From Christensenella sp. (GTDB lineage: Bacteria; Bacillota; Clostridia; Christensenellales; CAG-138), in the NCBI GenBank assembly GCA_034927595.1, contig JAYFPQ010000069.1, positions 26,412 through 90,411 of the forward strand: a stretch of 64,000 nt of DNA, written 5' to 3'. Shown here in pieces: positions 4,611-22,404 of this stretch. The position numbers were made by a program, and so were the translations under genes. Within the stretch, counting starts at the first letter, position 1. Every line of letters starts with the position of its first letter. The notes beneath the pieces are model-generated. The model saw only the letters and a program-made list of their open reading frames with translations, did not search any database and was not told the DNA's origin.

Positions 4611-4639
4611 TTGACACAAACATAGCTTTGTGTTAACAT
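4611..4639 (+). promoter_or_regulatory. SigA promoter with overlapping inverted-repeat operator candidate
   Basis: TTGACA(4611)-17 nt-TAACAT(4634); ACACAAA-N6-TTTGTGT at 4614-4633. Confidence 0.65.
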
Positions 4640-4726
4640 CGACGAAAATAGGCGAATCGCCTCATTTTTCGGCAGAAGTGCCAAAAAATGAGTTCCATGT
4701 TTCATAAAACAGGTCTTTGCGGCACG

Positions 4727-4767
4727 TCCTTGATGCCTCCTTTCGGTGGTTTCAAGGATATTTTTTT
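4727..4767 (+). terminator. Terminator-like hairpin inside the leader of the LeuA-like gene
   Basis: TCCTTGA...TCAAGGA stem followed by TATTTTTTT, 34 nt before the ATG. Confidence 0.55.
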
Positions 4768-4800
4768 AAACGCCGCAGAGAACCGGAAGGAGAACACGCC

Positions 4801-6222
4801 ATGGGAAACATACTCATTTCCGACGTAACCCTGCGTCAGGAACGCAAACGGACCGAAGCCGCGCTGAGCTTCCGTGAAAAACTGGAGATCGCGCGCGCTC
4901 TGGACCGACTGCGACTTAGCGGCGTTGAACTACCTTCCATTCAAAACGAAAAAGCGGATACGCTCCTCATCAAGTCCGTTGCCTCCGCGGTGAAGGACAG
5001 CCGCGTTGTCCTCGCCGCCGCGCTTTCGAGCGAGGGCGTCGAGCAGGCGTATGCCGCCATCAAGGAAGCGAACAAACCCTGCCTTCAGATTGCGGTGCCG
5101 ACCTCGACCGCGCAGATGGAATACATCTGCCATAAAAAGCCGGATCAGATTCTGTCGCTCATCGGCGAGCTCGTCAAGCAGGCGAAGTCCCTCTGCAAAG
5201 AGGTGGAGTTTGTCGCCGAGGACGCGACCCGCAGCGACGTGGAGTTTCTCTATCGCGCCATCGACACGGCAATTTCGGCGGGCGCGAGCATCGTGACGCT
5301 GGTGGACGGCTCGGAGGGGATGCTCCCCGCGCGCTTCGGCCAGTTCATTCGGGACGCGTATGCTCATGTACCGGCGCTGAGCAAGGTGTTGCTCGGCGTG
5401 CAGTGCGCGGACGGGCTGAGCCTTGCCGCGGCCGCGGCGCTGAGCGCCGTCGAAGCGGGCGCGGGACTGGTCAAGACCAGCACCGGCGGGGACGGCGTCT
5501 TGCCGCTCGAAACCATCGCGGGGATTCTGCGCGCGCGCGGGGTTGAACTCAACCTGAGCTCGAACATCGCGATGACCGAGCTGAGCCGCGCGGCGGGACA
5601 GGTGCGCTGGATGGTCAGCGCCAAGCGCGGAGCCGCTTCCGACTTTGAGGCGGGCGCGGCGCGCTCTATGGACGAAGCCGTCGTGTTGTCGAGCGAAAGC
5701 TCGCTTTCGGATATCTCCGCCGCCGTGCAGAAGCTCGGCTACGACCTCTCCGAAGAGGACAACGCAAAGGTATACGCCGCGTTTTTACGCATTGCGGATA
5801 AGAAAAACGTTGGCGAAAAGGAACTGGACGCAATCGTCGCGAGCGCGGCGCTGCAGGTTCCGCCGACCTATACGTTGGAAAGCTACGTCATCAACAGCGG
5901 AAACGTCATCACCGCGACCGCGCAGGTCAAGCTGCTCAAGCAGGGCAAGACGCTCTCCGGTTTTGCGGTTGGCGACGGCCCGATTGACGCGGCGTTTCTC
6001 GCCATTGAGCAGATCATTGGCCACCATTATGAGCTGGACGATTTCCAGATTCAGGCGGTTACGGAAGGGCGCGAGGCAATGGGCAGTGCGCTGGTGCGCC
6101 TCCGCGAGGACGGCAAGCTCTACTCCGGCAAGGGTATATCGACCGATATCATCGGCGCGAGCATCCACGCCTACCTCAACGCGCTCAACAAGATTGTCTA
6201 CGAGGAGGGCGCCCGTGCATGA
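4801..6222 (+). CDS. Degenerate 2-isopropylmalate synthase homologue with intact C-terminal leucine-binding regulatory domain
   Basis: LeuA-like fold (DVTLR, EFVAEDATR) but DGEQ->QERK and HxH->QCA; C-terminal GDGPIDA...STDIIGAS regulatory domain conserved. Confidence 0.8.
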   Translation: MGNILISDVTLRQERKRTEAALSFREKLEIARALDRLRLSGVELPSIQNEKADTLLIKSVASAVKDSRVVLAAALSSEGVEQAYAAIKEANKPCLQIAVPTSTAQMEYICHKKPDQILSLIGELVKQAKSLCKEVEFVAEDATRSDVEFLYRAIDTAISAGASIVTLVDGSEGMLPARFGQFIRDAYAHVPALSKVLLGVQCADGLSLAAAAALSAVEAGAGLVKTSTGGDGVLPLETIAGILRARGVELNLSSNIAMTELSRAAGQVRWMVSAKRGAASDFEAGAARSMDEAVVLSSESSLSDISAAVQKLGYDLSEEDNAKVYAAFLRIADKKNVGEKELDAIVASAALQVPPTYTLESYVINSGNVITATAQVKLLKQGKTLSGFAVGDGPIDAAFLAIEQIIGHHYELDDFQIQAVTEGREAMGSALVRLREDGKLYSGKGISTDIIGASIHAYLNALNKIVYEEGARA

Positions 6223-6291
6223 ACCGAACGATTGTAACAGGGGCAATTTGCCCTTCTGCGTCCCAGGCCGCGAAAAGGGGGAACGCGTAAG

Positions 6292-8793
6292 ATGAAACTG
6301 AGCTTTTCCACCCGAGGCTGGGGCGAATGCGGCTGGGAGGATTTCCTCGCCGCGGCAAAGGCGACCGGATACAGCGGCGTTGAGCTGCACGGGGTTGCGC
6401 ACTCCGCCTGGTCGCAGGACGGCGCGCCGTTTTCGCGCGCAAACGCAAGCCGGACGGTTCGGCGGTTGTTTGACGAGGGTCTCTGCATCAGCTGCGTGGA
6501 CTCCGTTTGCGACATTTCGTCCGCCGAGACGGACAAGGACGCGGAGCTGACCGAGACCATTCAACTGGCGCACGATTTTTCGATTCCCTATGTGCGACTT
6601 CGTGCGCTGGACGGCAGCGAAGCGGGCATTCAGGCGGCCTACGAGCGCATTTCGCGCGCGCTGCCGTTTGCCGAGGAGCGCGGCGTCATTCTGCTCGTGG
6701 AGACCGTAGCCGCCTTTGCGGACACGGCGAAGCTACAGAGCTTTTTAACCCGGTTTGCGAGCGACTCTCTCGCGGCGCTCTGGGATTTTCACCATCCCTA
6801 TTTTGACCACAGCGAATCGCCCGAAATGAGCATTAAGAACCTCGGCGCGTATGTCAAGCACGTTCACGTCAAGGACGCGGCGGACGGAGACTTCTGCCTG
6901 CCCGGCGAGGGCACGCTGCCGATGGCGGAGCTCATGTCTGCGCTGAGCTCGATCAACTACGACGGTTTCCTCTCGCTCGAGTGGGACCCCAAGTGGATGC
7001 CGGAGATGGACGATCTGGAGAGCGTGCTTGCGCACTTTTCCAACTATATGCAGCGCTTTGGCACCACCGCGCGGCAGAAACCGAAACGCTACCAGAACAA
7101 CGCCAAGACCGGCACGTTCGTCTGGCGGAAGGACATTCTGATCGATGCGACGTTTTCGCAGGTGCTCGACCGCATGGCGGAGGAGTATCCGGATCAGTAT
7201 GCGTTCAAGTATACGACGCTGGACTATACGCGGACCTATTCGGAATTCCGCGAGGACGTAGATCGCTGCTGCCGCGCGCTCGTGAGCATGGGCGTCGGCC
7301 CCGGCAGCCACGTCGCGGTCTGGATGACGAACCTGCCGCAGTGGTACATCGCCTTCTGGGCGGCACCCAAGATCGGCGCGGTGCTCGTCACCGTCAACAC
7401 AGCGTATAAGATTCACGAGGCGGAATATCTGCTCAAGCAGAGTGACACGCATACGCTGATTCTGGAGCAGGGGTATCGGGATTCGGACTATTCCGGCATT
7501 ATTGCCGAACTCTGCCCCGAACTGAAGACCACGCGCCCCGGCGAACACCTGCACGCAAGACGACTGCCGTTTTTACGAAACGTCGTCTCCGTCGGATACA
7601 AGCAGGAGGGCTGCCTGAACTGGGAAGAGATGATGGCGCGCTACAGCCGCACGCCCATCGAAGAGGTCAAGCGCCTTGCCGCTGCGGTCAACCCGCACGA
7701 CGTTTGCAACATGCAGTACACGAGCGGCACGACGGGTTTCCCCAAGGGCGTTATGTTGACGCACTACAACATCGTGAACAACGGCAAGTGCATCGGCGAC
7801 CGCATGGATCTCTCCACCGCGGATCGCATGATGATTCAGGTGCCGATGTTCCATTGCTTCGGCATGGTGCTGGCGATGACCGCCTGCGTGACGCACGGGT
7901 CGACCATGCTGCCGCTGCCGTACTTTTCGCCGAAACCCGCGCTGGCCTGCATCGATCAGGAGCACATTACCGCGTTCCATGGCGTACCGACGATGTTCAT
8001 CGCCATGCTGGAGCATCCGGACTTCCCGAAGACGGATTTCTCGTGCATGCGTACGGGCATTATGGCGGGCAGCCCCTGCCCGATCAAGGTCATGCAGGAC
8101 GTGCTCGAACAGATGCACATGGATCAGATCACGATCGTATTCGGTCAAACCGAAGCGTCGCCGGGCTGCACCATGAGCTCGACGGACGACCCCATCGAGG
8201 TGCGCGTTGGCACCGTCGGCCGCGCCCTGCCGGAGATCGAGTGCCGCATCGTCAGCCCGGAGACGGGCGAGGTGCTGCCGGTCGGCGAGATTGGCGAGTT
8301 TGTGGCGCGCGGTTACAACATCATGAAGGGCTACTACAAGATGCCCGGCGCGACGCGCAGCGCGATTGACGCCGAAGGCTGGCTGCACACGGGCGACCTC
8401 GCCTGCGAAACGCCGGAGGGGAACTACCGCATCACGGGCCGGCTCAAGGACATGATCATTCGCGGCGGCGAGAACATCTACCCCAAGGAGATTGAGGAGT
8501 TCCTCTACACGCACCCCAAGGTGAAGGATGTTCAGGTCATCGGCGTGCCGAGCGAGCAATATGGCGAGGAGATCATGGCCTGCGTCATCCTCAAAGAGGG
8601 CGAGTCCGCCACCGAACAGGAGATTCAGGACTACGTTCGCGCGAGCATGGCCAAGCACAAGGTGCCGAAGTATGTGGCGGTGGTGGACTCCTTCCCGATG
8701 AACGCGGCGGGCAAGATCATGAAGTACAAAATGCGCGAGGACGCGATCCAGAAACTCGGTCTGCAAAAGGCCGCGAGTGTGGTCACCGCATAA
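6292..8793 (+). CDS. Fusion: xylose-isomerase-like TIM barrel + AMP-dependent acyl-CoA synthetase
   Basis: N-term LVET/WDFHH/HVHVKD/SLEW metal motifs; C-term YTSGTTGFPKG, FGQTE, LHTGDL, IIRGGENIYP. Confidence 0.9.
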   Translation: MKLSFSTRGWGECGWEDFLAAAKATGYSGVELHGVAHSAWSQDGAPFSRANASRTVRRLFDEGLCISCVDSVCDISSAETDKDAELTETIQLAHDFSIPYVRLRALDGSEAGIQAAYERISRALPFAEERGVILLVETVAAFADTAKLQSFLTRFASDSLAALWDFHHPYFDHSESPEMSIKNLGAYVKHVHVKDAADGDFCLPGEGTLPMAELMSALSSINYDGFLSLEWDPKWMPEMDDLESVLAHFSNYMQRFGTTARQKPKRYQNNAKTGTFVWRKDILIDATFSQVLDRMAEEYPDQYAFKYTTLDYTRTYSEFREDVDRCCRALVSMGVGPGSHVAVWMTNLPQWYIAFWAAPKIGAVLVTVNTAYKIHEAEYLLKQSDTHTLILEQGYRDSDYSGIIAELCPELKTTRPGEHLHARRLPFLRNVVSVGYKQEGCLNWEEMMARYSRTPIEEVKRLAAAVNPHDVCNMQYTSGTTGFPKGVMLTHYNIVNNGKCIGDRMDLSTADRMMIQVPMFHCFGMVLAMTACVTHGSTMLPLPYFSPKPALACIDQEHITAFHGVPTMFIAMLEHPDFPKTDFSCMRTGIMAGSPCPIKVMQDVLEQMHMDQITIVFGQTEASPGCTMSSTDDPIEVRVGTVGRALPEIECRIVSPETGEVLPVGEIGEFVARGYNIMKGYYKMPGATRSAIDAEGWLHTGDLACETPEGNYRITGRLKDMIIRGGENIYPKEIEEFLYTHPKVKDVQVIGVPSEQYGEEIMACVILKEGESATEQEIQDYVRASMAKHKVPKYVAVVDSFPMNAAGKIMKYKMREDAIQKLGLQKAASVVTA

Positions 8794-8838
8794 CGCGCGA
8801 AATCGGGTCGTTTGAGCGCATAATTATGAAATTGGCGG

Positions 8839-8867
8839 TTGACAAACGGCGTGAATGCTGATAGGAT
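8839..8867 (+). promoter_or_regulatory. SigA promoter (extended -10) of T-box 1
   Basis: TTGACA-17-TAGGAT with TG at 8859-8860. Confidence 0.7.
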
Positions 8868-8892
8868 ACCAATAATTTCATACAGAACAAAA

Positions 8893-9159
8893 GGCTGTGA
8901 CGAAGACGGACGAACGCGCCGCACAAAGAGAGCCGGGGAGGGTGAAATCCCGGCGGCAGGCTACTTCACAATCCCATCCCTTCCGAGCCGAAAACTTGAA
9001 ACGGAGTTTCCGAAATAGGGTTTTCCGTATTTGCCGCGTAAAGGCAAAAGGCTTGTTGGAGCCTGACGAGTGGCGTTTTCACAAACGCAAGTTGAGTGGT
9101 ACCGCGGGACAAATCAAAATGATTGCCCGTCTCAAGAGAAATCTTGGGACGGGTTTTTT
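8893..9159 (+). promoter_or_regulatory. T-box riboswitch, predicted Ile specifier (AUC)
   Basis: GA motif GCTGTGA, AGAGAG/GGTGAAA stem I top, GTTGAGTGGTACCGCG T-box at 9091, terminator 9126-9159; AUC at 8976-8978. Confidence 0.85.
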
Positions 9160-9280
9160 CTATTTTTCTACTGCTGCGCAGTATTGCTTATTTAGAAACT
9201 GCTTCATGAGAAGCAAAGAAAAAGGAACTCCGGCTTGTGCCCGCAGGGCACACAAAAAATAATCCTATTCAGGAGGGACT

Positions 9281-11551
9281 ATGGAAACAGTCGAACTCAA
9301 CAGCCAATTGCTTGAAATCGCCTACCGCATTCGCGAGATGCGCGAAATTTCCGGGTTCACGCGGGACGAGATGGCAAAACGCACGGACGTCACCTTGCAG
9401 GAATACACCGACTACGAGGCGGGCAAGATGGACTTTCCGTTTACGTTTATCCATAAGTGCGCGGTTGCGTTCGGCATTGGCATTACCGACCTGCTCGAGG
9501 GCGACAGCGCCAAGCTTTCGTCCTACACGGTGACCCGCAAAGGTCAAGGGCAGATGGCGGCAAAAGAGGACGGAATCGAGATCAGCTCGCTGGCCCCGAT
9601 GTTCCGCAACAAGGTCGCCGAGCCATACTGGGTGCGCTATGCATACTCCGAGTCCCAGCAAAACCGCCCGATCCACCTGACGACGCACAACGGGCAGGAG
9701 TTTGACCTCGTGCTCCACGGTTCGCTCAAGGTGCAGGTCGGCGAGCACACCGAGATCCTGCGCGAGGGCGACAGCATCTACTACAACAGCGCAACGCCGC
9801 ACGGCATGATTGCCGTCGAGGGCAGCGAGTGCCTGTTTCTCGCGGTCGTGCTGCCGGGCGAGGGCGCGGCGAACACCGCCGAGCTGCACACGAGCATCGT
9901 GGAAGCGCGCAGAGCCGAGGATTACGTCTGCAACCGTTTTGTCAAAACGCAGGAAGACGAGCACGGCGCGCTCCAGCACGTGGACTTCGTGGACACCGAC
10001 AAATTCAACTTTGCGTTCGACATTGTGGACGCCATCGCGAAGAAAGCGCCAAACAAGCTCGCCATGCTGCACGTGGACATGGACGGCGTGGAGCGGAAGT
10101 TCTCGTTTGAGGACATGAGCAAGGCCAGCAACCGCACCGCGAACTACTTCCGTTCGCTCGGCATCAAGAAGGGCGACAAGGTCATGCTCGTGCTCAAGCG
10201 CCGCTACCAGTTCTGGTTTGCGATGCTGGCGTTGCATAAGATTGGCGCGGTCGCGATTCCCGCGACATATCAGCTCGTTGCGCACGACTTTACCTATCGC
10301 TTCCAGGCGGCGGGCGTCAGTGCGCTGGTCTGCACGGCGGACGGCGAAGCGGCGGCGCAGGCGGAGCTGGGGCAGGAGGGCTGCCCGGAGCTGACGACGA
10401 AGATTCTCGTCGGCGGAACGCGCGAGGGCTGGCACGACTTCGACAGTGAATATCAGCGCTTCAGCAGCCGTTTTGAGCGTCCGGACGACGCGATTGCGGG
10501 CGAGGACACGATGCTGATGTTCTTTACGAGTGGCACGACGGGTTATCCAAAGATCGCGTCGCATAGCTGCACCTACGCGCTGGGACACTTCGTCACCGCG
10601 AAATACTGGCATCAGGTGCACTCCGACGGGCTGCATTTAACCATTTCGGACACCGGCTGGGGCAAGGCGCTCTGGGGCAAGATCTACGGGCAGTGGCTCT
10701 GTGAAGCGGCGATCGCCACGTTTGAATTCGAGCGGTTCGACGCGAAGTACCTTATTCCGCTGTTTGCCAAGCACAAGGTGACGACGCTCTGCGCGCCGCC
10801 GACGATCTACCGCATGATGATTAAGGAAGACCTGAGCAAGTTTGACTTTTCGACCATTGTCCACGCGACGACGGCGGGCGAGGCGCTCAACCCCGAGGTG
10901 TTCTATCAGTTTGAACAGGCGACGGGGCTACGCATCATGGAAGGATTCGGACAGACGGAAACGACGCTGCTCGTGGCCTGCCTGACCGGAATGAACCCGA
11001 AACCCGGCTCGATGGGGCGTCCGGTGCCAACCTACGACGTCGACCTGCTCACGCCGGAGGGAAAGCCAGCCGAGCTCGGCGAACCCGGCGAAATCGTGAT
11101 CCACGTGGACAAAGGCCATCCCTGCGGACTGTTCCAGGGGTACTATCGGGACGAGGAACAGACCCGCGAGGCGGTCTGTGACGGAATCTACCACACGGGC
11201 GATCTCGCCTGGCGGGACGAGGACGGCTACTATTGGTACGTTGGCCGCCGGGACGACGTCATCAAGAGCTCCGGCTACCGCATCGGGCCGTTTGAGATTG
11301 AGAATGTCATCATGGAACTGCCATATGTGCTCGAGTGCGGCGTGTCTGCGGCGCCCGACGAGCTGCGTGGCCAGGTGATCAAGGCGAGCATCGTGCTCAC
11401 CGCCGGCACCGAGGGCACCGAGGAGCTCAAGAAAGAGATTCAGGAGTACGTAAAAACGCATACCGCGCCGTATAAATACCTGCGCAGTGTCGTCGTCCGC
11501 GACGAGCTGCCAAAGACGATCAGCGGCAAAATCATGCGCCGCCTGCTCTAA
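9281..11551 (+). CDS. XRE-HTH + cupin + medium-chain acyl-CoA synthetase fusion (paralogue 1)
   Basis: IAYRIREMREISG HTH, HNGQEFDLV cupin, FTSGTTGYPK, GFGQTET, YHTGDL, IKSSGYRIGPFEIE. Confidence 0.9.
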   Translation: METVELNSQLLEIAYRIREMREISGFTRDEMAKRTDVTLQEYTDYEAGKMDFPFTFIHKCAVAFGIGITDLLEGDSAKLSSYTVTRKGQGQMAAKEDGIEISSLAPMFRNKVAEPYWVRYAYSESQQNRPIHLTTHNGQEFDLVLHGSLKVQVGEHTEILREGDSIYYNSATPHGMIAVEGSECLFLAVVLPGEGAANTAELHTSIVEARRAEDYVCNRFVKTQEDEHGALQHVDFVDTDKFNFAFDIVDAIAKKAPNKLAMLHVDMDGVERKFSFEDMSKASNRTANYFRSLGIKKGDKVMLVLKRRYQFWFAMLALHKIGAVAIPATYQLVAHDFTYRFQAAGVSALVCTADGEAAAQAELGQEGCPELTTKILVGGTREGWHDFDSEYQRFSSRFERPDDAIAGEDTMLMFFTSGTTGYPKIASHSCTYALGHFVTAKYWHQVHSDGLHLTISDTGWGKALWGKIYGQWLCEAAIATFEFERFDAKYLIPLFAKHKVTTLCAPPTIYRMMIKEDLSKFDFSTIVHATTAGEALNPEVFYQFEQATGLRIMEGFGQTETTLLVACLTGMNPKPGSMGRPVPTYDVDLLTPEGKPAELGEPGEIVIHVDKGHPCGLFQGYYRDEEQTREAVCDGIYHTGDLAWRDEDGYYWYVGRRDDVIKSSGYRIGPFEIENVIMELPYVLECGVSAAPDELRGQVIKASIVLTAGTEGTEELKKEIQEYVKTHTAPYKYLRSVVVRDELPKTISGKIMRRLL

Positions 11552-11658
11552 AAAGGCTTGGTTCCGCCGCTTTGCGCCTTTGCGCGAAGCGGCGGACGAA
11601 CGAAATCAACACACGATGCAGATTGTGTAAAGCCTGCATAAAACTTCGGAAATACTCC

Positions 11659-11688
11659 TTGACAAGAAGAGAGGATTCGTGGTAGTCT
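11659..11688 (+). promoter_or_regulatory. SigA promoter of T-box 2
   Basis: TTGACA-18-TAGTCT. Confidence 0.55.
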
Positions 11689-11753
11689 GTACGAAATTAA
11701 ACGCCCGTTGCGTAACTTACGCGGCGGCAACGTTCCACACAAGGTCTAAAAAA

Positions 11754-12058
11754 GGCTGAGACGGAGAGGATCGCGTCCCGATTGCTTTTGCAGAGACCCG
11801 GCGGCTGGTGAAAGCCGGGATGGCATGGACGATGATTTGTAGCTCCCGAGCCGGAAGGAAGAACACCGAGCATACGGTTCGGCAAGTAGAACCTTCCCGT
11901 GCATGCGGCGTTACGGCATAGGGCTTATTGGAGCCTGAAGAGGGGTATCGGCGGCAACGTCGGTGCAATTTGAGTGGTACCGCGGGTAAAAGCTACGAGC
12001 TGCACTCGTCTCAAAGATGATCGGACTATTACGGGATCATCTTGGGGACGATTTTTTT
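11754..12058 (+). promoter_or_regulatory. T-box riboswitch, predicted Val specifier (GUA)
   Basis: GGCTGAGA GA motif, CAGAGA/GGTGAAA, TTTGAGTGGTACCGCG T-box at ~11969, terminator 12006-12058; GUA at 11839-11841. Confidence 0.85.
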
Positions 12059-12149
12059 GTACCTTTCGGTGATGTTCCAGAGCGTCCGAGCGCAACTGAG
12101 CAATCATGCCGGGGTGGTTTTCGCCGCCGGACGAAAGGGAGCAGGCAAT

Positions 12150-14441: not shown

Positions 14442-14509
14442 CTGTTATAATAGGGGAGTAGCGCGCGGGCGAAATCGCCAAAGCGCAGAGCGAGGAGAAG
14501 CAAACAACG

Positions 14510-15157
14510 TTGAATGCCAAGCGCGTGACCATTCTGACCGGACACTACGGCAGCGGAAAAACGAGCATCGCGGTGCAATACGCGCTGCGCCTGCGCGAAG
14601 CGGGCAACGCGGTCTCCATCTGCGACCTCGACATCGTGAATCCGTACTTCCGCTCGACGGATCACCGCGCGGAGTTGGAGGCGGCGGGCGTTTGCCTCGT
14701 AACCTCCCAGTTTGCGGGCAGCAACCTCGATATTCCCGCGCTGCCCAAGGAGCTCTACGCCGCCATTGCGGACAAGAGCGGCTATGCGGTGCTGGACGTC
14801 GGCGGCGACGACAGGGGCGCGGTTGCGCTGGGGCGCTATGTGCCGGACATCGTTGGCGAAGGCAATTACGAAATGCTCTTTGTCGCGAACTTCTACCGCC
14901 CGCTGACGAAGACGGCCGAGGACGCGTTGCAGGTTCTGCGCGAGGTGGAAGCCGCCTGCGGCATGCGTGTCACCGCGCTGGTCAACAACAGCAACCTTGG
15001 CTTGGAGACGAGCGCGGAGGATGTGCTGGGAACCGTTGATCGTATGGAGCGCTTCGCGCAGCTTGCCGAACTGCCAATCGCGTTTACGAGCGTGAGCAAT
15101 CGATTGAAAGAACAGTTAGATCATCAATTAGAGCATCCGTTTTGGATGAACTTTTAG
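14510..15157 (+). CDS. Uncharacterised P-loop ATPase (ParA/MinD-like) associated with the VOR operon
   Basis: GHYGSGKT Walker A, DLDIVNPYFRS, LDVGGD; TTG start after GAGGAG. Confidence 0.7.
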   Translation: MNAKRVTILTGHYGSGKTSIAVQYALRLREAGNAVSICDLDIVNPYFRSTDHRAELEAAGVCLVTSQFAGSNLDIPALPKELYAAIADKSGYAVLDVGGDDRGAVALGRYVPDIVGEGNYEMLFVANFYRPLTKTAEDALQVLREVEAACGMRVTALVNNSNLGLETSAEDVLGTVDRMERFAQLAELPIAFTSVSNRLKEQLDHQLEHPFWMNF

Positions 15158-15236
15158 ATAATAAGTCTCAGTAAATAGGGAATCCATTTTAGATGAATTT
15201 TTAGAAATCAAGCACAAAGACAGGAAAGGCGATACC

Positions 15237-15443
15237 ATGGCAAAAGTGACGTTTGAGACGAATCTTTGCAAAGGCTGCGGGCTCTGCGTAGACGCATGCC
15301 CCAAGAAGATCCTCAAGATCGATCGAGAGACGATCAACCAAAAGGGACACTCGCCCGCCGCAATGACGGACGAAGCACAGTGCATTGGCTGCGGCTTCTG
15401 CGCCACCATGTGCCCCGACTGCGTAATTACGGTGGAAAGGTAA
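15237..15443 (+). CDS. 2x[4Fe-4S] ferredoxin (oxidoreductase delta subunit)
   Basis: CKGCGLCVDACP and CIGCGFCATMCP. Confidence 0.9.
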   Translation: MAKVTFETNLCKGCGLCVDACPKKILKIDRETINQKGHSPAAMTDEAQCIGCGFCATMCPDCVITVER

Positions 15444-15454
15444 GGGCAAACAGC

Positions 15455-16519
15455 ATGGCGGACAAGGTTTTAATGAAGGGCAACGAGGCCATCGCCGAGG
15501 CGGCGATCCTCGCGGGCTGCCGACACTACTTCGGCTACCCGATCACCCCGCAGACGGAGATTGCGGCCTATATGGCAAAGCGGATGCCGAAGATCGGCGG
15601 CGTGTTTCTGCAGGCCGAGAGCGAAATTGCGGCGATCAACATGGTCTACGGCGTATCCGCCGCGGGCAAGCGCGTGATGACCAGCTCCTCGAGCCCCGGC
15701 ATTTCGCTCAAGGGCGAGGGTTTGAGCTATCTTGCGGGCAGCGACCTGCCGGCGTTTCTCGTGAACGTTCAGCGCGGCGGCCCGGGCCTCGGCGGCATTC
15801 AGCCCTCGCAGGCGGACTATTTTCAGGCGACGCGCGGCGGCGGCCACGGCGACTATCACATGATCGTGCTCGCGCCCGCCTCCGTTCAGGAGATGGCGGA
15901 TTTGACCGTCAAGGGCTTTGACCTCGCGGATAAATACCGCATGACGGCAATGATCCTCGCGGACGGCACCATCGGACAGATGATGGAGCCCGTCTCCCTC
16001 GATATCGGCGAGCAGAAGGTCTACGACAAGCCCTGGGCGCTCACCGGAACCAAGATGGAGCGTGAGCACAACATCGTGACCTCGCTGTTTCTCAAGCCGG
16101 AAGCGCTGGAGCAGCTCAACTTTGAGCGCTACGCGCGCTATCGCATTGTCGAAGAGAACGAGGTCATGTACGAGTCGTTCCAGATGGACGACGCGGAAAT
16201 CTGCGTCGTAGCTTACGGAATTACGGCGCGCGTTTCGAAAAACGCCGTGACCGCCGCGCGTGCCAAGGGCATCCGCGTCGGACTGATTCGCCCGATTACG
16301 CTCTGGCCGTTCCCGAAAGCGGTGCTGGCCGAGGCGGCAACGCGGGTCAAGTCTTTCCTCTCGGTGGAGATGTCCATGGGGCAGATGATCGAGGACATCG
16401 AACTCTCGATTCGCTGCGCAAAACCGGTGACCCTCGTCAACCGCGTCGGCGGCATGATCCCGACGCCGGAGCAGGTACTTTCCGCCATTGAACAGGCGGC
16501 AGGAGGTGACAAGAAATGA
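15455..16519 (+). CDS. vorB: 2-oxoisovalerate-type 2-oxoacid:ferredoxin oxidoreductase alpha subunit
   Basis: GNEAIAEAA, GYPITPQTE, ESEIAA, SSSPG, QRGGPGLG. Confidence 0.85.
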   Translation: MADKVLMKGNEAIAEAAILAGCRHYFGYPITPQTEIAAYMAKRMPKIGGVFLQAESEIAAINMVYGVSAAGKRVMTSSSSPGISLKGEGLSYLAGSDLPAFLVNVQRGGPGLGGIQPSQADYFQATRGGGHGDYHMIVLAPASVQEMADLTVKGFDLADKYRMTAMILADGTIGQMMEPVSLDIGEQKVYDKPWALTGTKMEREHNIVTSLFLKPEALEQLNFERYARYRIVEENEVMYESFQMDDAEICVVAYGITARVSKNAVTAARAKGIRVGLIRPITLWPFPKAVLAEAATRVKSFLSVEMSMGQMIEDIELSIRCAKPVTLVNRVGGMIPTPEQVLSAIEQAAGGDKK

Positions 16520-17262
16520 TTGTCGCAAAACGTCCGAATTCGCTGACCGCAACGCCCACGCATTATTGCCCGGGCTGCACGCACGGCATTATTCACCGCC
16601 TCGTCGCGGAGGCGATCGACACGCTGGGCATCGAGGGACGCACCATTGGCGTCGCGCCCGTCGGCTGTTCGGTGCTGGCGTATAACTATTTCACGGTCGA
16701 CATGATCGAAGCAGCGCATGGGCGCGCGCCCGCGGTTGCTACTGGAGTCAAGCGCGCGGAGCCGGGCAACATCGTCTTTACCTATCAGGGCGACGGCGAC
16801 CTCGCGAGCATCGGCATGGCGGAGACCGTCCACGCCGCGGCGCGGAACGAGAACATTACGATTATCTTCGTAAACAACGCGATCTACGGTATGACCGGCG
16901 GCCAGATGGCGCCGACCTCGCTGCCGGGGCAGGTCACCCAGACCTCGCCTTACGGACGCGACGTGACCCAGTGCGGCTACCCGATTCGCGTCTGCGAAAT
17001 GCTCTCCGAGCTCGAAGGGCCGGAGTACCTCGCCCGCGTTGCGGTCAACAGCGTGAAAAACGTCAATGCCGCGAAAAAGGCAATTGAGAAGGCGTTCCGC
17101 AATCAGATTGAGGGCAAGGGCTTCTCGCTGGTCGAGGTCGTCTCCGGCTGCCCGACGAACTGGGGCATGACGCCGCAGGCCGCGCTCAAATGGATTGACG
17201 ACGCGATGATTCCCTACTATCCGCTTGGGGTCTACAAGGACCGCAGCGCAAAGGAGGCGTAA
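16516..17262 (+). CDS. 2-oxoacid:ferredoxin oxidoreductase beta (TPP-binding) subunit
   Basis: YCPGCTHG, QGDGDLASIG, NNAIYGMTGGQ. Confidence 0.9.
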   Translation: MIVAKRPNSLTATPTHYCPGCTHGIIHRLVAEAIDTLGIEGRTIGVAPVGCSVLAYNYFTVDMIEAAHGRAPAVATGVKRAEPGNIVFTYQGDGDLASIGMAETVHAAARNENITIIFVNNAIYGMTGGQMAPTSLPGQVTQTSPYGRDVTQCGYPIRVCEMLSELEGPEYLARVAVNSVKNVNAAKKAIEKAFRNQIEGKGFSLVEVVSGCPTNWGMTPQAALKWIDDAMIPYYPLGVYKDRSAKEA

Positions 17263-17268
17263 CGCGCT

Positions 17269-17820
17269 ATGGCTAACAAGAGCAAGACTACGCGCATCCT
17301 CATTGCCGGATTTGGCGGACAGGGTGTACTGTTCATGGGAAAACTGCTTGCCTACGTCGGCATGGCGGAGGATCGTCAGGTCAGCTGGCTGCCCTCCTAC
17401 GGGCCGGAAATGCGCGGCGGCACGGCGAATTGCAGCGTGATTCTGAGCGACGACCCCATCGGTTCGCCCATCGTGGACGCGCCGGACGTGCTGATCGCCA
17501 TGAACCTGCCGTCGTTTCAGAAGTATCAGAACGCCGTCGTTCCCGGCGGCTCCATCGTGCTGGACTCCTCGCTGATTGGCGAAGCACCGGCGCGTAAGGA
17601 CATTTCCTACTACGCGCTGCCCGCGACGCAGCTGGCGACGGACGAGCATCTGGACGGGTTGAGCAACATGATTCTGCTCGGTAAGTTCCTCGAAGCCTGC
17701 CTGCCGACGAGCGGCGAGCTCACGAAAAAGGCGCTCTTGAAGGTGGTTCCCGCGAAAAAGGAACACCTGCTCGCGTCGAACGAACAGGCCATTGCGCTCG
17801 GACGGGCGTATCAGGGGTAA
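17269..17820 (+). CDS. 2-oxoacid:ferredoxin oxidoreductase gamma subunit
   Basis: [20 protein letters not shown]. Confidence 0.9.
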
Positions 17821-17826
17821 GAAACG

Positions 17827-18615
17827 ATGAAGATCGCCTGCGTGCAGATGGACGTGCTCCCGGGCAAGCCGGAGCAAAACTATGCCATCGCCGAGGCGCT
17901 GATTCGAAAGGCCGCGCGAAAACAGCCGGACGTCATCCTACTGCCGGAAACGTGGAACACGGGCTTTGCGCCACAGCACCTCGACCCCGCGCAGGCGGAC
18001 GAGGACGGCGCGCGAACGAAGCGCTTATGTTCCGCGCTGGCTAAGGAACTGGGGGTCAACCTGCTTGCGGGCAGCGTCACGACCCGCCGCGCGGACGGGC
18101 TCTACAACACCGCCTACGGGTTCAACCGCTCGGGCGAGCTCGTTTGCAGCTACGACAAGACGCATCTGTTCTCCCCGCTGGGGGAGGACAAGGCGTATCG
18201 AAAGGGCGGTTCCCTCGCGTGTTTTACGCTGGACGGAGTCAATTGCGCGCTGATCACCTGCTACGACCTGCGTTTTCCGGAGCTGGCGCGCACGCTGGCG
18301 CTGCCGGGGCTGGATGTGCTCTTTGTGGTCTCCCAGTGGCCGAAGCAGCGGATTTCGCATCTAGAGACGCTCGCAAGAGCGCGCGCAATTGAGAACCAAA
18401 CGTTCGTCGCGGTGTGCAACGCCTGCGGAAATGCGTATGGAACGAAGTTCGGCGGGCGCTCAATGGTGATCGATCCGCTGGGGAACATCCTCCGGCAGGC
18501 GGGATCACGCGAGAGCGTTCTACATGCAGAAATCTCGCTGGGCATGCTCGCGCAGGTGCGGCAGGCGATTCCGGTATTTCAGGATCGCAGGCCGGAACTC
18601 TATTCATTGGATTAA
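17827..18615 (+). CDS. Carbon-nitrogen hydrolase (nitrilase/omega-amidase family)
   Basis: LPETWN, YDKTHLF, TCYDLRFPE (E-K-C triad). Confidence 0.9.
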   Translation: MKIACVQMDVLPGKPEQNYAIAEALIRKAARKQPDVILLPETWNTGFAPQHLDPAQADEDGARTKRLCSALAKELGVNLLAGSVTTRRADGLYNTAYGFNRSGELVCSYDKTHLFSPLGEDKAYRKGGSLACFTLDGVNCALITCYDLRFPELARTLALPGLDVLFVVSQWPKQRISHLETLARARAIENQTFVAVCNACGNAYGTKFGGRSMVIDPLGNILRQAGSRESVLHAEISLGMLAQVRQAIPVFQDRRPELYSLD

Positions 18616-18662
18616 ACTGGTTTGGTCATATATTACAGATAAAGCAGAGGTGGAAAAAGAAC

Positions 18663-19742
18663 ATGAGCTACGAATTTTCAATCACGAAAAACCCGAATCC
18701 CAAGCCGAAGCCGGATCCCAATACGTTGGTCTTCGGTCAGGTGTTCACCGACCACATGTTCGTCATGGACTATGACGAAGGCAAGGGCTGGCACGACGGC
18801 CGCATTCTTCCCTACGGCGACATTCTGATCAGCCCGGCGAGCAGCGTGCTGCACTACGCGCAGATGATGTTTGAAGGCATGAAGGCGTACCGTACCGAGG
18901 ACGGTCATGTTCAGCTGTTCCGCCCGGAGATGAACGCGCGCCGCCTGAACCGGACGAACGAACGTATGTGCATGCCGCAGATGGACGAGGATCTCTTCGT
19001 CGCGGCGGTCAAGGCCGTGGTCAAGATGGACGCGGACTGGGTGCCGGATGCGCCGTTTACCTCGCTGTACGTGCGCCCGTTCATCATTGCGGACGATCCG
19101 GCGCTCGGCGTAAAATCCGCCAAGCACTTCCGCTTCATGATCATTCTCTGCCCGTCCGGCCCGTACTATGCGGCAAACCGCGGCAAGCTCTCGACGACGC
19201 GCATCTTCGTGGAAGACGAGTTCATCCGCGCGGCGCACGGCGGAACGGGCTACGCCAAGGTTGGCGGCAACTACGCGGGTTCGCTCCGCGCGTCCCAGAA
19301 GGCGCACGAGTGCGACTGCAACGACGTGCTCTGGCTGGATGCCATCGAGCACAAATACGTCGAAGAGGTTGGTTCCTCCAACGCGTTCTTCATGATTGGC
19401 GACGAGGTCATTACGGCTCCGCTGGCGGGTACGATTCTGCCGGGCATCACGCGGGATTCCGTGTTGACGCTGCTGCGTGAATGGGGCATCCGCGCGAGCG
19501 AGCGCAAGATTTCGATTGACGACATCATTGAAGCGGCGAAGAAGGGCGAGCTGAAGGAAGCCTTTGCCAGCGGCACCGCGGCGGTCATCTCACCGATGGG
19601 CCTGCTGCACTACCAGGACAAGGAATACACCATCGGCAACCGCGAGGTCGGCCCGATTTCGCAAAAGCTCTACGACACCATCACCGGCATCCAGACCGGC
19701 AAGATTGCGGATACGCACGGCTGGATTCAGCGTGTCGTCTGA
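18663..19742 (+). CDS. ilvE: Branched-chain amino acid aminotransferase
   Basis: LHYAQMMFEGMKAY, KVGGNYA, EEVGSSN, ILPGITR, GTAAVISP. Confidence 0.95.
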   Translation: MSYEFSITKNPNPKPKPDPNTLVFGQVFTDHMFVMDYDEGKGWHDGRILPYGDILISPASSVLHYAQMMFEGMKAYRTEDGHVQLFRPEMNARRLNRTNERMCMPQMDEDLFVAAVKAVVKMDADWVPDAPFTSLYVRPFIIADDPALGVKSAKHFRFMIILCPSGPYYAANRGKLSTTRIFVEDEFIRAAHGGTGYAKVGGNYAGSLRASQKAHECDCNDVLWLDAIEHKYVEEVGSSNAFFMIGDEVITAPLAGTILPGITRDSVLTLLREWGIRASERKISIDDIIEAAKKGELKEAFASGTAAVISPMGLLHYQDKEYTIGNREVGPISQKLYDTITGIQTGKIADTHGWIQRVV

Positions 19743-19823
19743 AAAAACGGCTATATGAAAAAGTAGATACCCGTATCTAAAAAAATAGCTTGCTTTTTTG
19801 TACGGGAAGGCTATAATACAATC

Positions 19824-19896
19824 TTGTTCCGGCACGTTGCCTCGCAGTTTGGTGTGAAAATCACGAACGCGCGGTGAGCGTGCCGGAACGTTTTTT
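19824..19896 (+). ncRNA. Long hairpin + U tract preceded by a TATAAT promoter: small RNA candidate or ilvE terminator
   Basis: GTTCCGGCACG(19826)...CGTGCCGGAAC(19889) G TTTTTT; TTGCTT(19790)-16-TATAAT(19812). Confidence 0.4.
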
Positions 19897-19922
19897 GGTC
19901 GATAAAGATATATCATATACTA

Positions 19923-19951
19923 TTGACAACATCTTTCCGCCGTGCTACAGT
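19923..19951 (+). promoter_or_regulatory. SigA promoter (extended -10) of T-box 3
   Basis: TTGACA-17-TACAGT with TG at 19943-19944. Confidence 0.7.
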
Positions 19952-19970
19952 GAACGCAATTGAATTTCTA

Positions 19971-20246
19971 ACGCGATGACGGAAACCAGTACCCGTTCAA
20001 GAAGCTTTTTTCAGAGAGCCGCCAATTGGTGCGAAGCGGCAGAAGCGGGAGCGGCGAATTCCTTCCCGAGCGGCTTGCTGAAGCGAAGGTGGTAGGCAAA
20101 GACGGGCGCGCCCGATACAGCGCCGGGGGTATGACAGCGTATCCCAACGAGGCCTTTTCGCGCAAGCGAGCGGCAAATAGAGGTGGTACCACGGGAATCA
20201 GCCCGTCCTCTGCGGAAACAACATCCGCGGAGGGCGGCTTTTTTAT
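19971..20246 (+). promoter_or_regulatory. T-box riboswitch, predicted Phe specifier (UUC)
   Basis: CGCGATGA GA motif, CAGTA, CAGAGAG/GGTGCGAA, GAA-UUC at 20056-20061, AAATAGAGGTGGTACCACG T-box, terminator ~20201-20246. Confidence 0.9.
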
Positions 20247-20329
20247 TTGCCGGAATTCGCGAAGAATAAAAAAGTAAAAAACGGCATTGCAAATTGCTTG
20301 CCTGCCGGAGTATAAAGGAGAAGAGAACC

Positions 20330-21637
20330 ATGGAGCACTATTATCAGCGGGAGATCGAGACCGCTCCGCGCGAGCAGATCCGCAAACTGCAAAACGAGCG
20401 GCTGCTTGCCACCGTGCGCCGCGTGTATGAGCGCGTTGAGCTCTACCGCGAGCGGATGCAGGCGGCGGGCGTGTCGCCGGACGATATCCAGAGCATCGAC
20501 GACCTCAAGAAACTGCCGTTCACCTACAAGCAGGATCTGCGGGACACCTACCCCTACGGCATGTTCGCCGTACCGCTCAAGGACGTCGTGCGCCTGCACG
20601 CGTCGAGCGGCACGACCGGCAAGCAGATTGTCGTCGGCTACACGGCAAACGACATGGAGGTTTGGGCGGACTGCTGTGCGCGCTCCATCGTGGCCGCGGG
20701 TGGCAGCGAGGAGGACATTGTCCACGTTTCGTATGGCTACGGACTGTTCACGGGCGGGCTCGGCATGGACGCGGCGAGCAAGAAGGTCGGCGCGACGACG
20801 ATTCCCGTTTCCAGCGGCAACACGCAGCGGCAACTTACGATTCTTAAGGATTTCGGCTCCACGATCCTTTGCAGCACGCCCTCCTACGCGCTGCACCTCG
20901 CGGAGGCGCTCCGCGAAAGCGGCGCAACGAAGGCGGACATCTCGCTCAAAGCGGGCATCTTCGGCGCGGAACCCTGGACCAACGAGATGCGCCGCGAGCT
21001 GGAGGAACAGCTCGGCCTCAAAGCCTTCGACATCTACGGGTTGACGGAGATCATTGGCCCGGGCGTCGCGTTCGAATGCGGCGAGCAGACGGGCATGCAC
21101 GTCAACGAGGATCACTTCCTGATCGAAATCATCGACCCGGACACGGGCGAGGTGCTGCCGGAGGACACGCAGGGCGAAATCGTCTTCTCGTGCATCACGA
21201 AGGAGGCGTTCCCGATTCTGCGCTACCGCACGCGGGACATCGGCCTCATCACGCGCAAACCCTGCCCTTGCGGGCGCACGCTGGTCAAGATGACCAAGCC
21301 GCGCGGGCGCACGGACGATATGCTCATCATCCGCGGGGTCAACGTGTTCCCCAGCCAGATTGAGACCGTGCTGCTCGAACAGGGCTACACCGCGAACTAC
21401 CGGATCATCGTCGACCGCTCGCAGAATCTGGACAGCGTGGACGTAGAGGTCGAGATTGGCAGCGAACTGCCCTCCGATACCGTCAAGGGGCTCGACCGGC
21501 AGGAGAAGGCGCTCGAAGAGGCGCTGCGCTCGCTGCTCGGCATCTCGGCGAAGGTAAAGCTGCTCGAGCCGAACACGATTGAACGCTCCCAAGGCAAGGC
21601 CGTCCGCGTTATCGACAAGCGCAAACTGCTCGACTAG
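20330..21637 (+). CDS. paaK: Phenylacetate-CoA ligase family protein
   Basis: HASSGTTG, YGYGLFTGG, DIYGLTE, RYRTRD, GRTDDMLIIRGVNVFPSQIE. Confidence 0.9.
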   Translation: MEHYYQREIETAPREQIRKLQNERLLATVRRVYERVELYRERMQAAGVSPDDIQSIDDLKKLPFTYKQDLRDTYPYGMFAVPLKDVVRLHASSGTTGKQIVVGYTANDMEVWADCCARSIVAAGGSEEDIVHVSYGYGLFTGGLGMDAASKKVGATTIPVSSGNTQRQLTILKDFGSTILCSTPSYALHLAEALRESGATKADISLKAGIFGAEPWTNEMRRELEEQLGLKAFDIYGLTEIIGPGVAFECGEQTGMHVNEDHFLIEIIDPDTGEVLPEDTQGEIVFSCITKEAFPILRYRTRDIGLITRKPCPCGRTLVKMTKPRGRTDDMLIIRGVNVFPSQIETVLLEQGYTANYRIIVDRSQNLDSVDVEVEIGSELPSDTVKGLDRQEKALEEALRSLLGISAKVKLLEPNTIERSQGKAVRVIDKRKLLD

Positions 21638-21664
21638 CCGAAACAGAACAGAGGAGGAAGCAGC

Positions 21665-22093
21665 ATGATACAGCAACTCTCGGTCTTTCTGCAGAACGAA
21701 CCCGGCAAGCTCGCCGCCATCACGACCGCGCTCGCCGAGGGCGGACTCGACCTGCGCGCGCTCTCCATTGCGGACACCACGGACTTTGGCATTCTGCGCA
21801 TGCTCGTCAGCGACGCGGCCAAGGCGCGGGCCATCCTCGAACAGAAGCGCTACTCCGCGAGCGTCACCGCCGTGACCATCGTCGCCGTGCCGGACGTGCC
21901 GGGCGGGCTCGCGGGCGTGCTGACTATGCTCGCAAATGAGGGCGTGGACATTGAATACATGTATTCGCTGATCGGCCGCGGGGAGGACAAGGCGTATATG
22001 GTCTTCCGCGCGACGGACGGGGCAAAGCTTCTCGCGGCGCTTGCGCAGCACGGCATCGCCACCATCTCCAACGAGGAGCTCGGCATTCGCTAA
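21665..22093 (+). CDS. Tandem ACT-domain amino acid-binding protein
   Basis: QLSVFLQNEPG...DVPGGL...IEYMY; typical paaK neighbour. Confidence 0.85.
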   Translation: MIQQLSVFLQNEPGKLAAITTALAEGGLDLRALSIADTTDFGILRMLVSDAAKARAILEQKRYSASVTAVTIVAVPDVPGGLAGVLTMLANEGVDIEYMYSLIGRGEDKAYMVFRATDGAKLLAALAQHGIATISNEELGIR

Positions 22094-22138: not shown

Positions 22139-22404
22139 CGCGCGAGATAAACAGACGGCAGTTGCGCAACGCTTTTTGAAAATTCTGTTAAACTACGGAA
22201 TTTTAATCGAAACGCCAGTATCGAATACGCGTGGTTTTGCTTGACAGCCGCCCGCTTCCGGCGCGATACTGAACACGACGGGCGGATTGTGTTCTTGCGG
22301 GCGAATCCGGCCGTTCTGCCGCGCGTTTTCCACCTTTGGCGCGGCATGCGCGTTCATTACGGTTTCGCCGCACCGGCAAGCGGCGAGTTTGGGAAAGGGA
22401 GAAT

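Follow-up and report, generated by a model that had tools for sequence, protein, structure and literature searches.

Introduction

T-box leaders are well characterized regulatory RNAs of Bacillota (Rfam RF00230), which switch genes on while the matching tRNA is uncharged, as in the ilv-leu operon of Bacillus subtilis and the leaders of aminoacyl-tRNA synthetase genes. The supply operons known to be controlled in this manner encode acetolactate and isopropylmalate pathways, transporters and synthetases. That isobutyrate, 2-methylbutyrate, isovalerate and phenylacetate can be reductively carboxylated on the way to Val, Ile, Leu and Phe has been known from the physiology of rumen bacteria and methanogens since the 1960s. 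For leucine in the rumen, the carboxylation of isovalerate followed by amination is cited in PMC7356843. In this study, a gene cluster at 4.6-22.1 kb of a 64 000-nucleotide stretch of a Christensenella sp. genome (contig C27, positions 26412-90411; hereafter the window) was analyzed in the context of a source genome of 3.2 Mb in 165 contigs (91.8% complete). From its genes, its leaders and related loci, the cluster is quite probably a starvation-induced salvage system that would convert short branched and aromatic acids from the environment to amino acids by reductive carboxylation.

The cluster has the same RNA architecture as the RF00230 operons, namely a specifier codon in stem I, a UGGN bulge and a terminator/antiterminator switch, and follows the same logic, in which an uncharged tRNA turns on the supply of the matching amino acid. 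Unlike the known operons, it comprises acid-activating ligases and a ferredoxin-dependent 2-oxo acid oxidoreductase (VOR), and a single pathway is divided among its entry enzymes by specifiers for Ile, Val and Leu. The chemistry proposed here, in which an acid becomes acyl-coenzyme A (acyl-CoA), a ferredoxin oxidoreductase forms the 2-oxo acid from it and transamination gives the amino acid, is the same as that of the rumen physiology; whereas the latter consists mostly of labelling and nutrition data, the cluster adds a gene set, dedicated ligases, regulatory RNAs and accessory proteins. Two of the ligases resemble Macs of Methanosarcina acetivorans (MacsMa; PDB 3ETC) and MbcS, in that their whole ligase domain is approximately 58% identical to 3ETC and has a Gly at the position of Trp414 in Acs. 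They differ from Macs and MbcS in their N-terminal helix-turn-helix (HTH)-cupin module, in their location behind T-boxes and in a proposed role in the synthesis of amino acids as opposed to lipids. A further protein shares the HMGL-like fold and the LeuA_dimer domain of LeuA; however, it lacks the catalytic motifs (hereafter dead LeuA) and is always paired with a ligase that is fused to a TIM barrel (the TIM-ligase). Finally, in comparison with the iorA-iorB-paaK-ACT clusters of anaerobes, the paaK-ACT pair stands here behind a Phe T-box, and iorAB is found apart from it on another contig.

The carboxylation chemistry, T-boxes, VOR, IOR, Macs and MbcS are each already known. No paper linking T-boxes with VOR, PaaK, IOR, branched acids or acyl-CoA synthetase was found in a search that had most subscription journals outside its reach, and the assignment of genes to the pathway, the three-specifier partition, the dead-LeuA/TIM-ligase pair and the HTH-cupin fusions were not found in the searchable literature. 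What sets the window apart is that paaK-ACT has gained a Phe T-box, that the Leu T-box has given way to another leader and that a full de novo pathway is present alongside.

Organization of the cluster

In the window annotation, every gene between 4.6 and 22.1 kb lies on the + strand, and the genes are grouped as four units. This layout, with a different CoA ligase in each unit, had been given in an earlier description made from the letters of the stretch (hereafter the preliminary description), and all of the parts named there were found in place on the + strand. The features are as follows.

4611-4639, + strand: promoter-like site of the dead-LeuA operon, with the palindrome ACACA-N10-TGTGT (4614-4633) within its spacer
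4705-4768, + strand: leader other than a T-box, with a conserved block, a hairpin and U7 directly before the ribosome-binding site
4798-6222, + strand: dead LeuA (pseudo-isopropylmalate synthase), HMGL-like and LeuA_dimer domains
6292-8793, + strand: TIM-barrel/acyl-CoA ligase fusion, 833 amino acids (aa); proposed isovalerate-CoA ligase of the leucine branch
8839-8867, + strand: promoter-like site of the Ile unit
8888-9164, + strand: Ile T-box leader; specifier AUC at 8976-8978, UGGU bulge at 9097-9100, terminator at 9125-9154 and U-run
9281-11551, + strand: ligase 1, 756 aa; XRE HTH, cupin and Macs/MbcS-like synthetase; proposed 2-methylbutyrate-CoA ligase
11660-11690, + strand: promoter-like site of the Val unit, TTGACA-N17-TAGTCT, spotted by eye
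11749-12061, + strand: Val T-box leader; specifier GUA at 11839-11841, terminator hairpin at 12006-12051 and U7
12150-14441, + strand: ligase 2, 763 aa; XRE HTH, cupin and Macs/MbcS-like synthetase; proposed isobutyrate-CoA ligase
14510-15157, + strand: SIMIBI-class P-loop NTPase (as predicted), 215 aa; proposed accessory or maturation factor of VOR
15237-15443, + strand: VOR delta subunit, 68 aa, two [4Fe-4S] clusters
15458-16519, + strand: VOR alpha subunit (NCBIfam VorB family)
16516-17262, + strand: VOR beta subunit, thiamine diphosphate (TPP)-binding
17269-17820, + strand: VOR gamma subunit
17827-18615, + strand: Nit2/YafV-like carbon-nitrogen hydrolase; proposed omega-amidase
18666-19742, + strand: IlvE, type II branched-chain aminotransferase (BCAT)
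19923-19951, + strand: promoter-like site of the Phe unit
19967-20247, + strand: Phe T-box leader; specifier UUC at 20059-20061, terminator at 20203-20237 and U-run
20330-21637, + strand: PaaK-like phenylacetate-CoA ligase, single copy in the genome
21665-22093, + strand: ACT-pair protein, always adjoining paaK in relatives

Leaders and specifier codons

Against RF00230, the Phe leader (19967-20213) scored 102.3 bits, above the gathering score of 93, while the Val leader (11749-12016) scored 73.7 bits (E 1e-14) and the Ile leader (8888-9137) 72.1 bits (E 3e-14), the latter two over the full length of the model (positions 1-219). The T-box sequence with the UGGN bulge, GUGGUACC, was found in all three cluster leaders. 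Their terminator hairpins have folding energies of -23.0, -22.3 and -28.6 kcal/mol (z from -3.7 to -5.4), and a U-run follows each of them. Specifiers were read in the register codon-N-4nt-N-GAGC, which was calibrated on the genome's own valS (GUC), ileS (AUC), pheS (UUC), metS (AUG) and trpB (UGG) leaders. These signatures show three T-box leaders that are predicted to read tRNA-Ile, tRNA-Val and tRNA-Phe, each closing with an intrinsic terminator.

A scan of one genome per species detected relatives of ligase 2 in at least 591 species, and the best 80 loci, all from metagenome-assembled genomes (MAGs) of Clostridia from gut, rumen and digesters, were compared. A T-box hidden Markov model built from the 15 leaders that the source genome holds in total recovered 15 of 15 here and detected 143 leaders across the related loci; where the K-turn was not GAGC, the specifier was read by eye. 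Ahead of paralog 1, the specifier was AUC in all 48 readable leaders (44 automatic, four by eye), and ahead of paralog 2 it was GUA, GUC or GUG in 72 of 74 (62 automatic, ten by eye). The two remaining paralog 2 leaders were a truncated one and one with CUG, which heads an operon that also contains genes of the leucine branch. The earlier proposal of one amino-acid-specific ligase per branch agrees with these 80 loci, in which paralog 1 goes with Ile, paralog 2 with Val and the dead-LeuA/TIM-ligase pair with Leu T-boxes. At one locus (L076:9662-20532), a single CUG (Leu) T-box heads ligase 2, the P-loop gene, VOR, ilvE, dead LeuA and the TIM-ligase, and this locus is without an Ile-type ligase.

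Ligases of the Ile and Val units

Ligases 1 and 2 are paralogs with 60% identity from end to end. Both contain the Pfam AMP-binding and AMP-binding_C domains and, as was absent from the preliminary description, an N-terminal XRE-type HTH and cupin of approximately 230 residues; this architecture is similar to that of PuuR-type regulators, and the module gave no sequence match in the PDB. The cluster is common: of 400 genomes sampled from the class, 237 contained a close ligase homologue, and in well over 100 of these it was a full-length HTH-cupin fusion. The catalytic parts matched 3ETC with E values of 1e-181 to 1e-184 at the identity given above. This structure is that of Macs, which prefers 2-methylbutyrate and adenylates a wide range of acids (PMC10455477). 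The top NCBIfam model for both ligases is MbcS of Staphylococcus aureus, which in purified form is selective for 2-methylbutyrate and isobutyrate and is poor on isovalerate and butyrate (PMC10026030). In the alignment, the position of Acs Trp414 is Gly in ligase 1, ligase 2 and Macs, and this replacement enlarges the acyl pocket (PMC10455477). Ligase 1 is proposed to be a 2-methylbutyrate-CoA ligase and ligase 2 an isobutyrate-CoA ligase.

In the protein tree, the paralog groups split by specifier in 106 of 107 cases. Twelve residues discriminate between the clades, 11 of which are in the HTH-cupin part; since the clade-specific residues cluster there, it is suggested that the HTH-cupin modules recognise something branch-specific. 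Within the catalytic domain, a single position discriminates, with Gly461 in ligase 1 (Ile type) versus Ala468 in ligase 2 (Val type); it aligns with Val310 of Escherichia coli Acs and is Gly in Macs. Val310 is reportedly an acyl-pocket residue (work by Ingram-Smith et al. from 2006), for which a literature search gave no confirmation. Provided that this role holds, the difference would be in the expected direction, the C5 acid going with the smaller residue and the C4 acid with the larger.

An alternative is that the T-boxes control general supply genes, chiefly IlvE, and that the ligases act on acetate, propionate or butyrate, so that acid and amino acid would only seem to correspond. IlvE is indeed also needed for de novo synthesis, the pathway of which is present in this genome, and the ligases score below the equivalog cut-offs; however, ligase 1 is the sole gene behind its own Ile T-box, the match of paralog to specifier extends across approximately 120 leaders, and the single discriminating residue differs as expected for C5 versus C4, given its reported role in the pocket. 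The broad range of acids adenylated by Macs would fit this alternative, whereas the Gly at the Trp414 position opens the pocket beyond acetate (PMC10455477). On balance, it is considered very unlikely.

Oxidoreductase core and accessory proteins

With 545.5 bits, the VOR alpha subunit lies above the VorB cut-off of 399. The delta, beta and gamma subunits were recognised by Fer4, TPP_enzyme_C and POR domains in adjacent genes and score below the NCBIfam equivalog cut-offs. IlvE, the only type II BCAT of the genome, passes both NF009897 (481 bits versus 307) and TIGR01123 (400 versus 250). The survey of synteny in relatives that the preliminary description had envisaged was carried out, and the order ligase 1, ligase 2, P-loop gene, vorDABG, sometimes the hydrolase gene, and ilvE is kept in most of the 80 loci.

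The P-loop gene lies directly upstream of vorD in every locus, even where ilvE has been relocated, and this fixed position suggests a role in the assembly or maturation of VOR. Sequence searches with the protein gave weak N-terminal matches only. Its predicted structure (pLDDT 90) was closest in fold to the GTPase domains of the signal recognition particle, ATPase-type HypB and MipZ, with TM scores of 0.5-0.63, so that by structure prediction it is a SIMIBI-class NTPase, for which the fold search points to no specific function. The Walker A motif is invariant across relatives, and there is no invariant cysteine.

The hydrolase matched Pfam CN_hydrolase (E 1.5e-49) and the structures of Nit2 (PDB 2w1v; E 2e-36) and Nit3 (PDB 1f89; E 1e-28), and reached neither the YafV nor the deaminated glutathione amidase cut-off of NCBIfam; its gene is present only in some relatives. 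For MtnE and MtnU of methionine salvage, an amidase has been proposed to pull glutamine-dependent amination. By analogy, the hydrolase beside the transaminase could remove 2-oxoglutaramate and so pull a glutamine-dependent amination.

Direction of the pathway

Gene content was examined in 31 carrier genomes, comprising 30 cluster-carrying relatives and the source genome, and in 14 control genomes. The ilvD gene was found in six of the 31 carriers (in one of them below the cut-off) and in all 14 controls, and a true leuB was found in six carriers. Prephenate dehydratase was detected in 29 of the 31, and the carrier assemblies are therefore complete enough to reveal a gene of this type. With ilvD and leuB absent from most carriers, most are without a de novo route to valine, isoleucine and leucine, yet IlvE is kept in the cluster, which would thus be the sole path to branched-chain amino acids in the majority of carriers.

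The source genome itself contains a T-box-led operon with cimA-like, ilvB, ilvD, leuA, leuC, leuD, leuB, ilvN and ilvC genes on contig C148, and prephenate dehydratase (pheA) on C164. The possibility raised in the preliminary description that ilvBNCD, leuBCD and pheA might be lacking did not hold, as ilvB, ilvN, ilvC, ilvD, leuABCD and pheA are all in the genome. Since these amino acids are also made de novo here, salvage would be a second, cheaper supply, and the IlvE of the Val unit is predicted to serve both routes. The T-box of the de novo operon (C148:9844-10111) was read as AUC (Ile), and not as Leu as in B. subtilis.

AMP-forming ligases drive the activation of acids, not their release. 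The biosynthetic direction that had been proposed from the T-boxes is supported by their response to uncharged tRNA and by AMP-forming ligases favouring activation, and it is in line with most carriers being without ilvD and leuB. The opposite direction, with branched-chain amino acids broken down to acyl-CoAs by IlvE and VOR and some other purpose for the ligases, draws on the reversibility of VOR and IOR, which are established to work oxidatively in amino-acid-fermenting anaerobes and archaea; however, T-box induction under amino-acid scarcity would be the wrong signal for degradation. The ligase paralogs also follow the specifiers across species, and ilvD is missing from most carriers. AMP-forming ligases conserve no energy in the direction of the acid, whereas catabolism uses ADP-forming synthetases or Ptb/Buk. 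ADP-forming acyl-CoA synthetases are described as completing the oxidative route (PMC3942289). A catabolic cluster is thus considered extremely unlikely.

It was also considered whether the ligases mainly supply branched acyl-CoA primers for the branched-chain fatty acids of membranes, with amino acids as a secondary product or none at all. MbcS, the best NCBIfam match, has a demonstrated role in supplying primers to FabH in S. aureus (PMC10026030), and branched acyl-CoAs from the cluster could feed both fates. In contrast, the ligase genes either share a transcription unit with those of VOR and IlvE or lie close to them, the charging of the matching tRNA would be an odd signal for lipid supply, and most carriers, being without ilvD and leuB, need another route to branched-chain amino acids. 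Lipid synthesis as the main purpose is consequently regarded as unlikely, while the ligases may provide primers for branched-chain lipids as a sideline.

Leucine branch

The LeuA-like protein scored 300 bits against an NCBIfam cut-off of 532. In LeuA, the motif LRDGEQ contains the metal-binding Asp and HxH the metal-binding His. In the window protein, LRDGEQ has become LRQERK and HxHDD has become QCADG, while GERAGN and HQDG are absent; LRDGEQ, HxH, GERAGN and HQDG are lost in all 27 dead-LeuA orthologs (41-81% identical), whereas all four catalytic motifs are intact in the true LeuA of the genome (C148). Because these motifs are lost, dead LeuA cannot be an isopropylmalate synthase. The regulatory LeuA_dimer domain is kept (PF08502, E 9e-32). 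When constraint was measured at positions that are identical in both true LeuAs, those kept in at least 80% of the dead-LeuA orthologs amounted to 52% in the regulatory domain versus 18% in the catalytic part. Among the orthologs, the Gly that corresponds to G462 of E. coli LeuA is invariant; G462D is a feedback-resistance mutation of the E. coli enzyme.

The TIM-ligase gene directly follows dead LeuA in 27 of the 27 loci in which both are visible, and the pair lies upstream of, downstream of or divergent from the VOR cluster, depending on the locus. T-boxes precede the pair in 17 relatives, 13 of them with CUC or CUG (Leu) and four not safely readable. The assignment of the pair to leucine is supported by these 13 of 17 leaders. 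The preliminary description had placed the leucine branch under a protein sensor instead of RNA; as a general statement this is wrong, as dead LeuA and a Leu T-box co-occur in relatives.

In the window and its closest relatives (loci L004-L006), the T-box ahead of dead LeuA is absent. Its place is taken by a leader of approximately 190 nucleotides with a conserved 26-nucleotide block (ATAAAACAGGTCTTTnCGGCAyGTCC), a terminator-like hairpin and U7. The hairpin has a folding energy of -18.3 kcal/mol (z -4.95) and shows compensatory changes in L005 and L006. A degenerate T-box was considered and rejected, as there was no Rfam match at E <= 1 and no nhmmer match at E <= 10 (--max). A leader peptide is unlikely, since conservation of the block is seen in its nucleotides and L005 has no upstream ATG. 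The leader (4640-4797) may be an undescribed attenuator, and by these comparisons only this lineage has swapped the Leu T-box for another terminator-bearing leader.

In the fusion protein, residues 1-270 form the xylose-isomerase-like TIM barrel (AP_endonuc_2), and the ligase half is of the FadD/PRK12583 type (NCBIfam PRK12583), a subfamily other than that of ligases 1 and 2. The nearest solved structures to the ligase half are fatty-acyl-CoA, feruloyl-CoA and malonyl-CoA synthetases. Mean identity among orthologs is 44% for the TIM barrel versus 73.5% for the ligase half. The candidate metal ligands E137, D165, H192 and E230, the positions of which were set by motif resemblance, are all in the window TIM barrel (6292-7110), and they are kept in 16, 14, 19 and 12 of 23 orthologs, respectively. 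A conserved catalytic role of the barrel is unlikely because of its faster evolution and the retention of these ligands in only 12-19 of 23 orthologs, and it seems to be decaying as an enzyme.

Phenylalanine branch

PaaK was the best family for the ligase of the Phe unit (552.7 bits over the full length versus a TIGR02155 cut-off of 646). The paaK-ACT pair is kept in all 25 relatives checked, and among 20 relatives viewed with wider flanks the arrangement iorA-iorB-paaK-ACT was present in 13. A Phe (UUC) T-box was found in four relatives (approximately four of 20), once upstream of iorA. In the source genome, iorA, iorB and a class I aminotransferase gene are located together on contig C144 without a T-box. 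The phenylalanine branch had been described as feeding the shared VOR/IlvE core; with iorAB and the aminotransferase on C144 and the usual arrangement in relatives being iorA-iorB-paaK-ACT, it appears instead to be a separate IOR-based module. It is an auxiliary route, as nearly all carriers keep pheA.

Proposed mechanism

In the salvage system proposed here, uncharged tRNA-Ile would lead to the production of ligase 1 and to the activation of 2-methylbutyrate to its CoA ester, while uncharged tRNA-Val would lead to the production of ligase 2, acting on isobutyrate, together with VOR, its P-loop partner, the Nit2-like amidase and IlvE. With reduced ferredoxin and CO2, VOR would convert the branched acyl-CoAs to 2-oxo acids, which IlvE would aminate; the amidase may hydrolyse 2-oxoglutaramate and render a glutamine-driven amination irreversible. 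The FadD-type TIM-ligase would activate isovalerate for leucine. The use of a different ligase family for leucine would be explained by enzymes of the Macs/MbcS type being poor on isovalerate: alpha-branched acids (Ile, Val) would be served by these types, while the beta-branched acid (Leu) would need another family. Dead LeuA, as a constant partner in which the leucine-binding regulatory domain alone is constrained, probably exerts feedback control on the TIM-ligase. PaaK would activate phenylacetate, and IorAB and an aminotransferase encoded elsewhere would complete phenylalanine.

Several points weigh against this mechanism. The de novo ilv/leu operon under T-box control is complete here and is accompanied by pheA, so that salvage is non-essential; moreover, with IlvE as the only type II BCAT, T-box control of the Val operon also fits de novo synthesis. 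Ligases 1 and 2 scored 428 and 420 bits versus an MbcS equivalog cut-off of 850 and are relatives, not equivalogs, and the PaaK-like ligase likewise falls short of its equivalog cut-off. Support is low for the node between the Ile-type and Val-type ligases, two of the three T-boxes (Ile and Val) fall short of the Rfam gathering score, and relatives with a Phe T-box before paaK are a minority. The completeness of the relatives' MAGs is not reported, and the prephenate dehydratase control addresses it only indirectly. Finally, for the TIM barrel, dead LeuA, the HTH-cupin modules, the ACT protein, the P-loop protein and the amidase, the proposed roles come from context only.

As a tentative extension, which is more doubtful than the salvage function, every entry ligase may have recruited its own noncatalytic module for ligand sensing, which would add rapid feedback to the T-box control. 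The module would be a PuuR-like HTH-cupin for the Ile ligase, a second and distinct HTH-cupin for the Val ligase, dead LeuA (with its leucine-binding domain only) and the decaying TIM barrel for the Leu ligase, and the ACT-pair protein for the Phe ligase. The new leader that replaced the Leu T-box might then be controlled by dead LeuA or another protein of the system.

Many fibre-degrading Clostridia of the rumen and gut need branched short-chain acids, and the feeding of ruminants with these acids is practised. In the literature that could be searched, no genes had been assigned to this need. The cluster provides candidate genes for it, namely three ligases, VOR with its P-loop partner and IlvE, and the T-box specifier serves as a built-in annotation key that names the amino acid served by each ligase. 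As a genomic marker, it would predict that carriers without ilvD depend on branched acids or on the import of amino acids, which would improve metabolic models of cross-feeding on the products of protein fermentation. Dead LeuA and the apparently decaying TIM barrel, kept as partners of active enzymes, would be clear cases of pseudoenzymes.

Other observations

Two further T-boxes of the source genome were noted. A UAC (Tyr) T-box (C8:3453-3759) precedes a tryptophanase/tyrosine phenol-lyase-like gene (482 aa), which hints that tyrosine might be made from phenol upon starvation. A Trp (UGG) T-box (C159:31326-31578, - strand) lies upstream of a lipoprotein/substrate-binding protein gene.

Perfect palindromes ACACA-N10-TGTGT occur in the window at 4614-4633 and at 11609-11628, upstream of the ligase 2 promoter, and a copy with one mismatch occurs at 22273-22292, before a DUF5692 gene; 0.64 matches with at most one mismatch are expected by chance. 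A conserved operator was dropped as an explanation, as no copy was present in the loci of other species. The DUF5692 gene (22336-23388) follows directly after paaK-ACT and has its own promoter-like site. Beyond it, a protein of 819 aa that combines a SIR2-like domain and a STAND NTPase is encoded at 23506-25965 on the - strand, in an island of 36% GC within a genome of approximately 60% GC; from its domains and base composition, it is probably a defence gene that was acquired by transfer.

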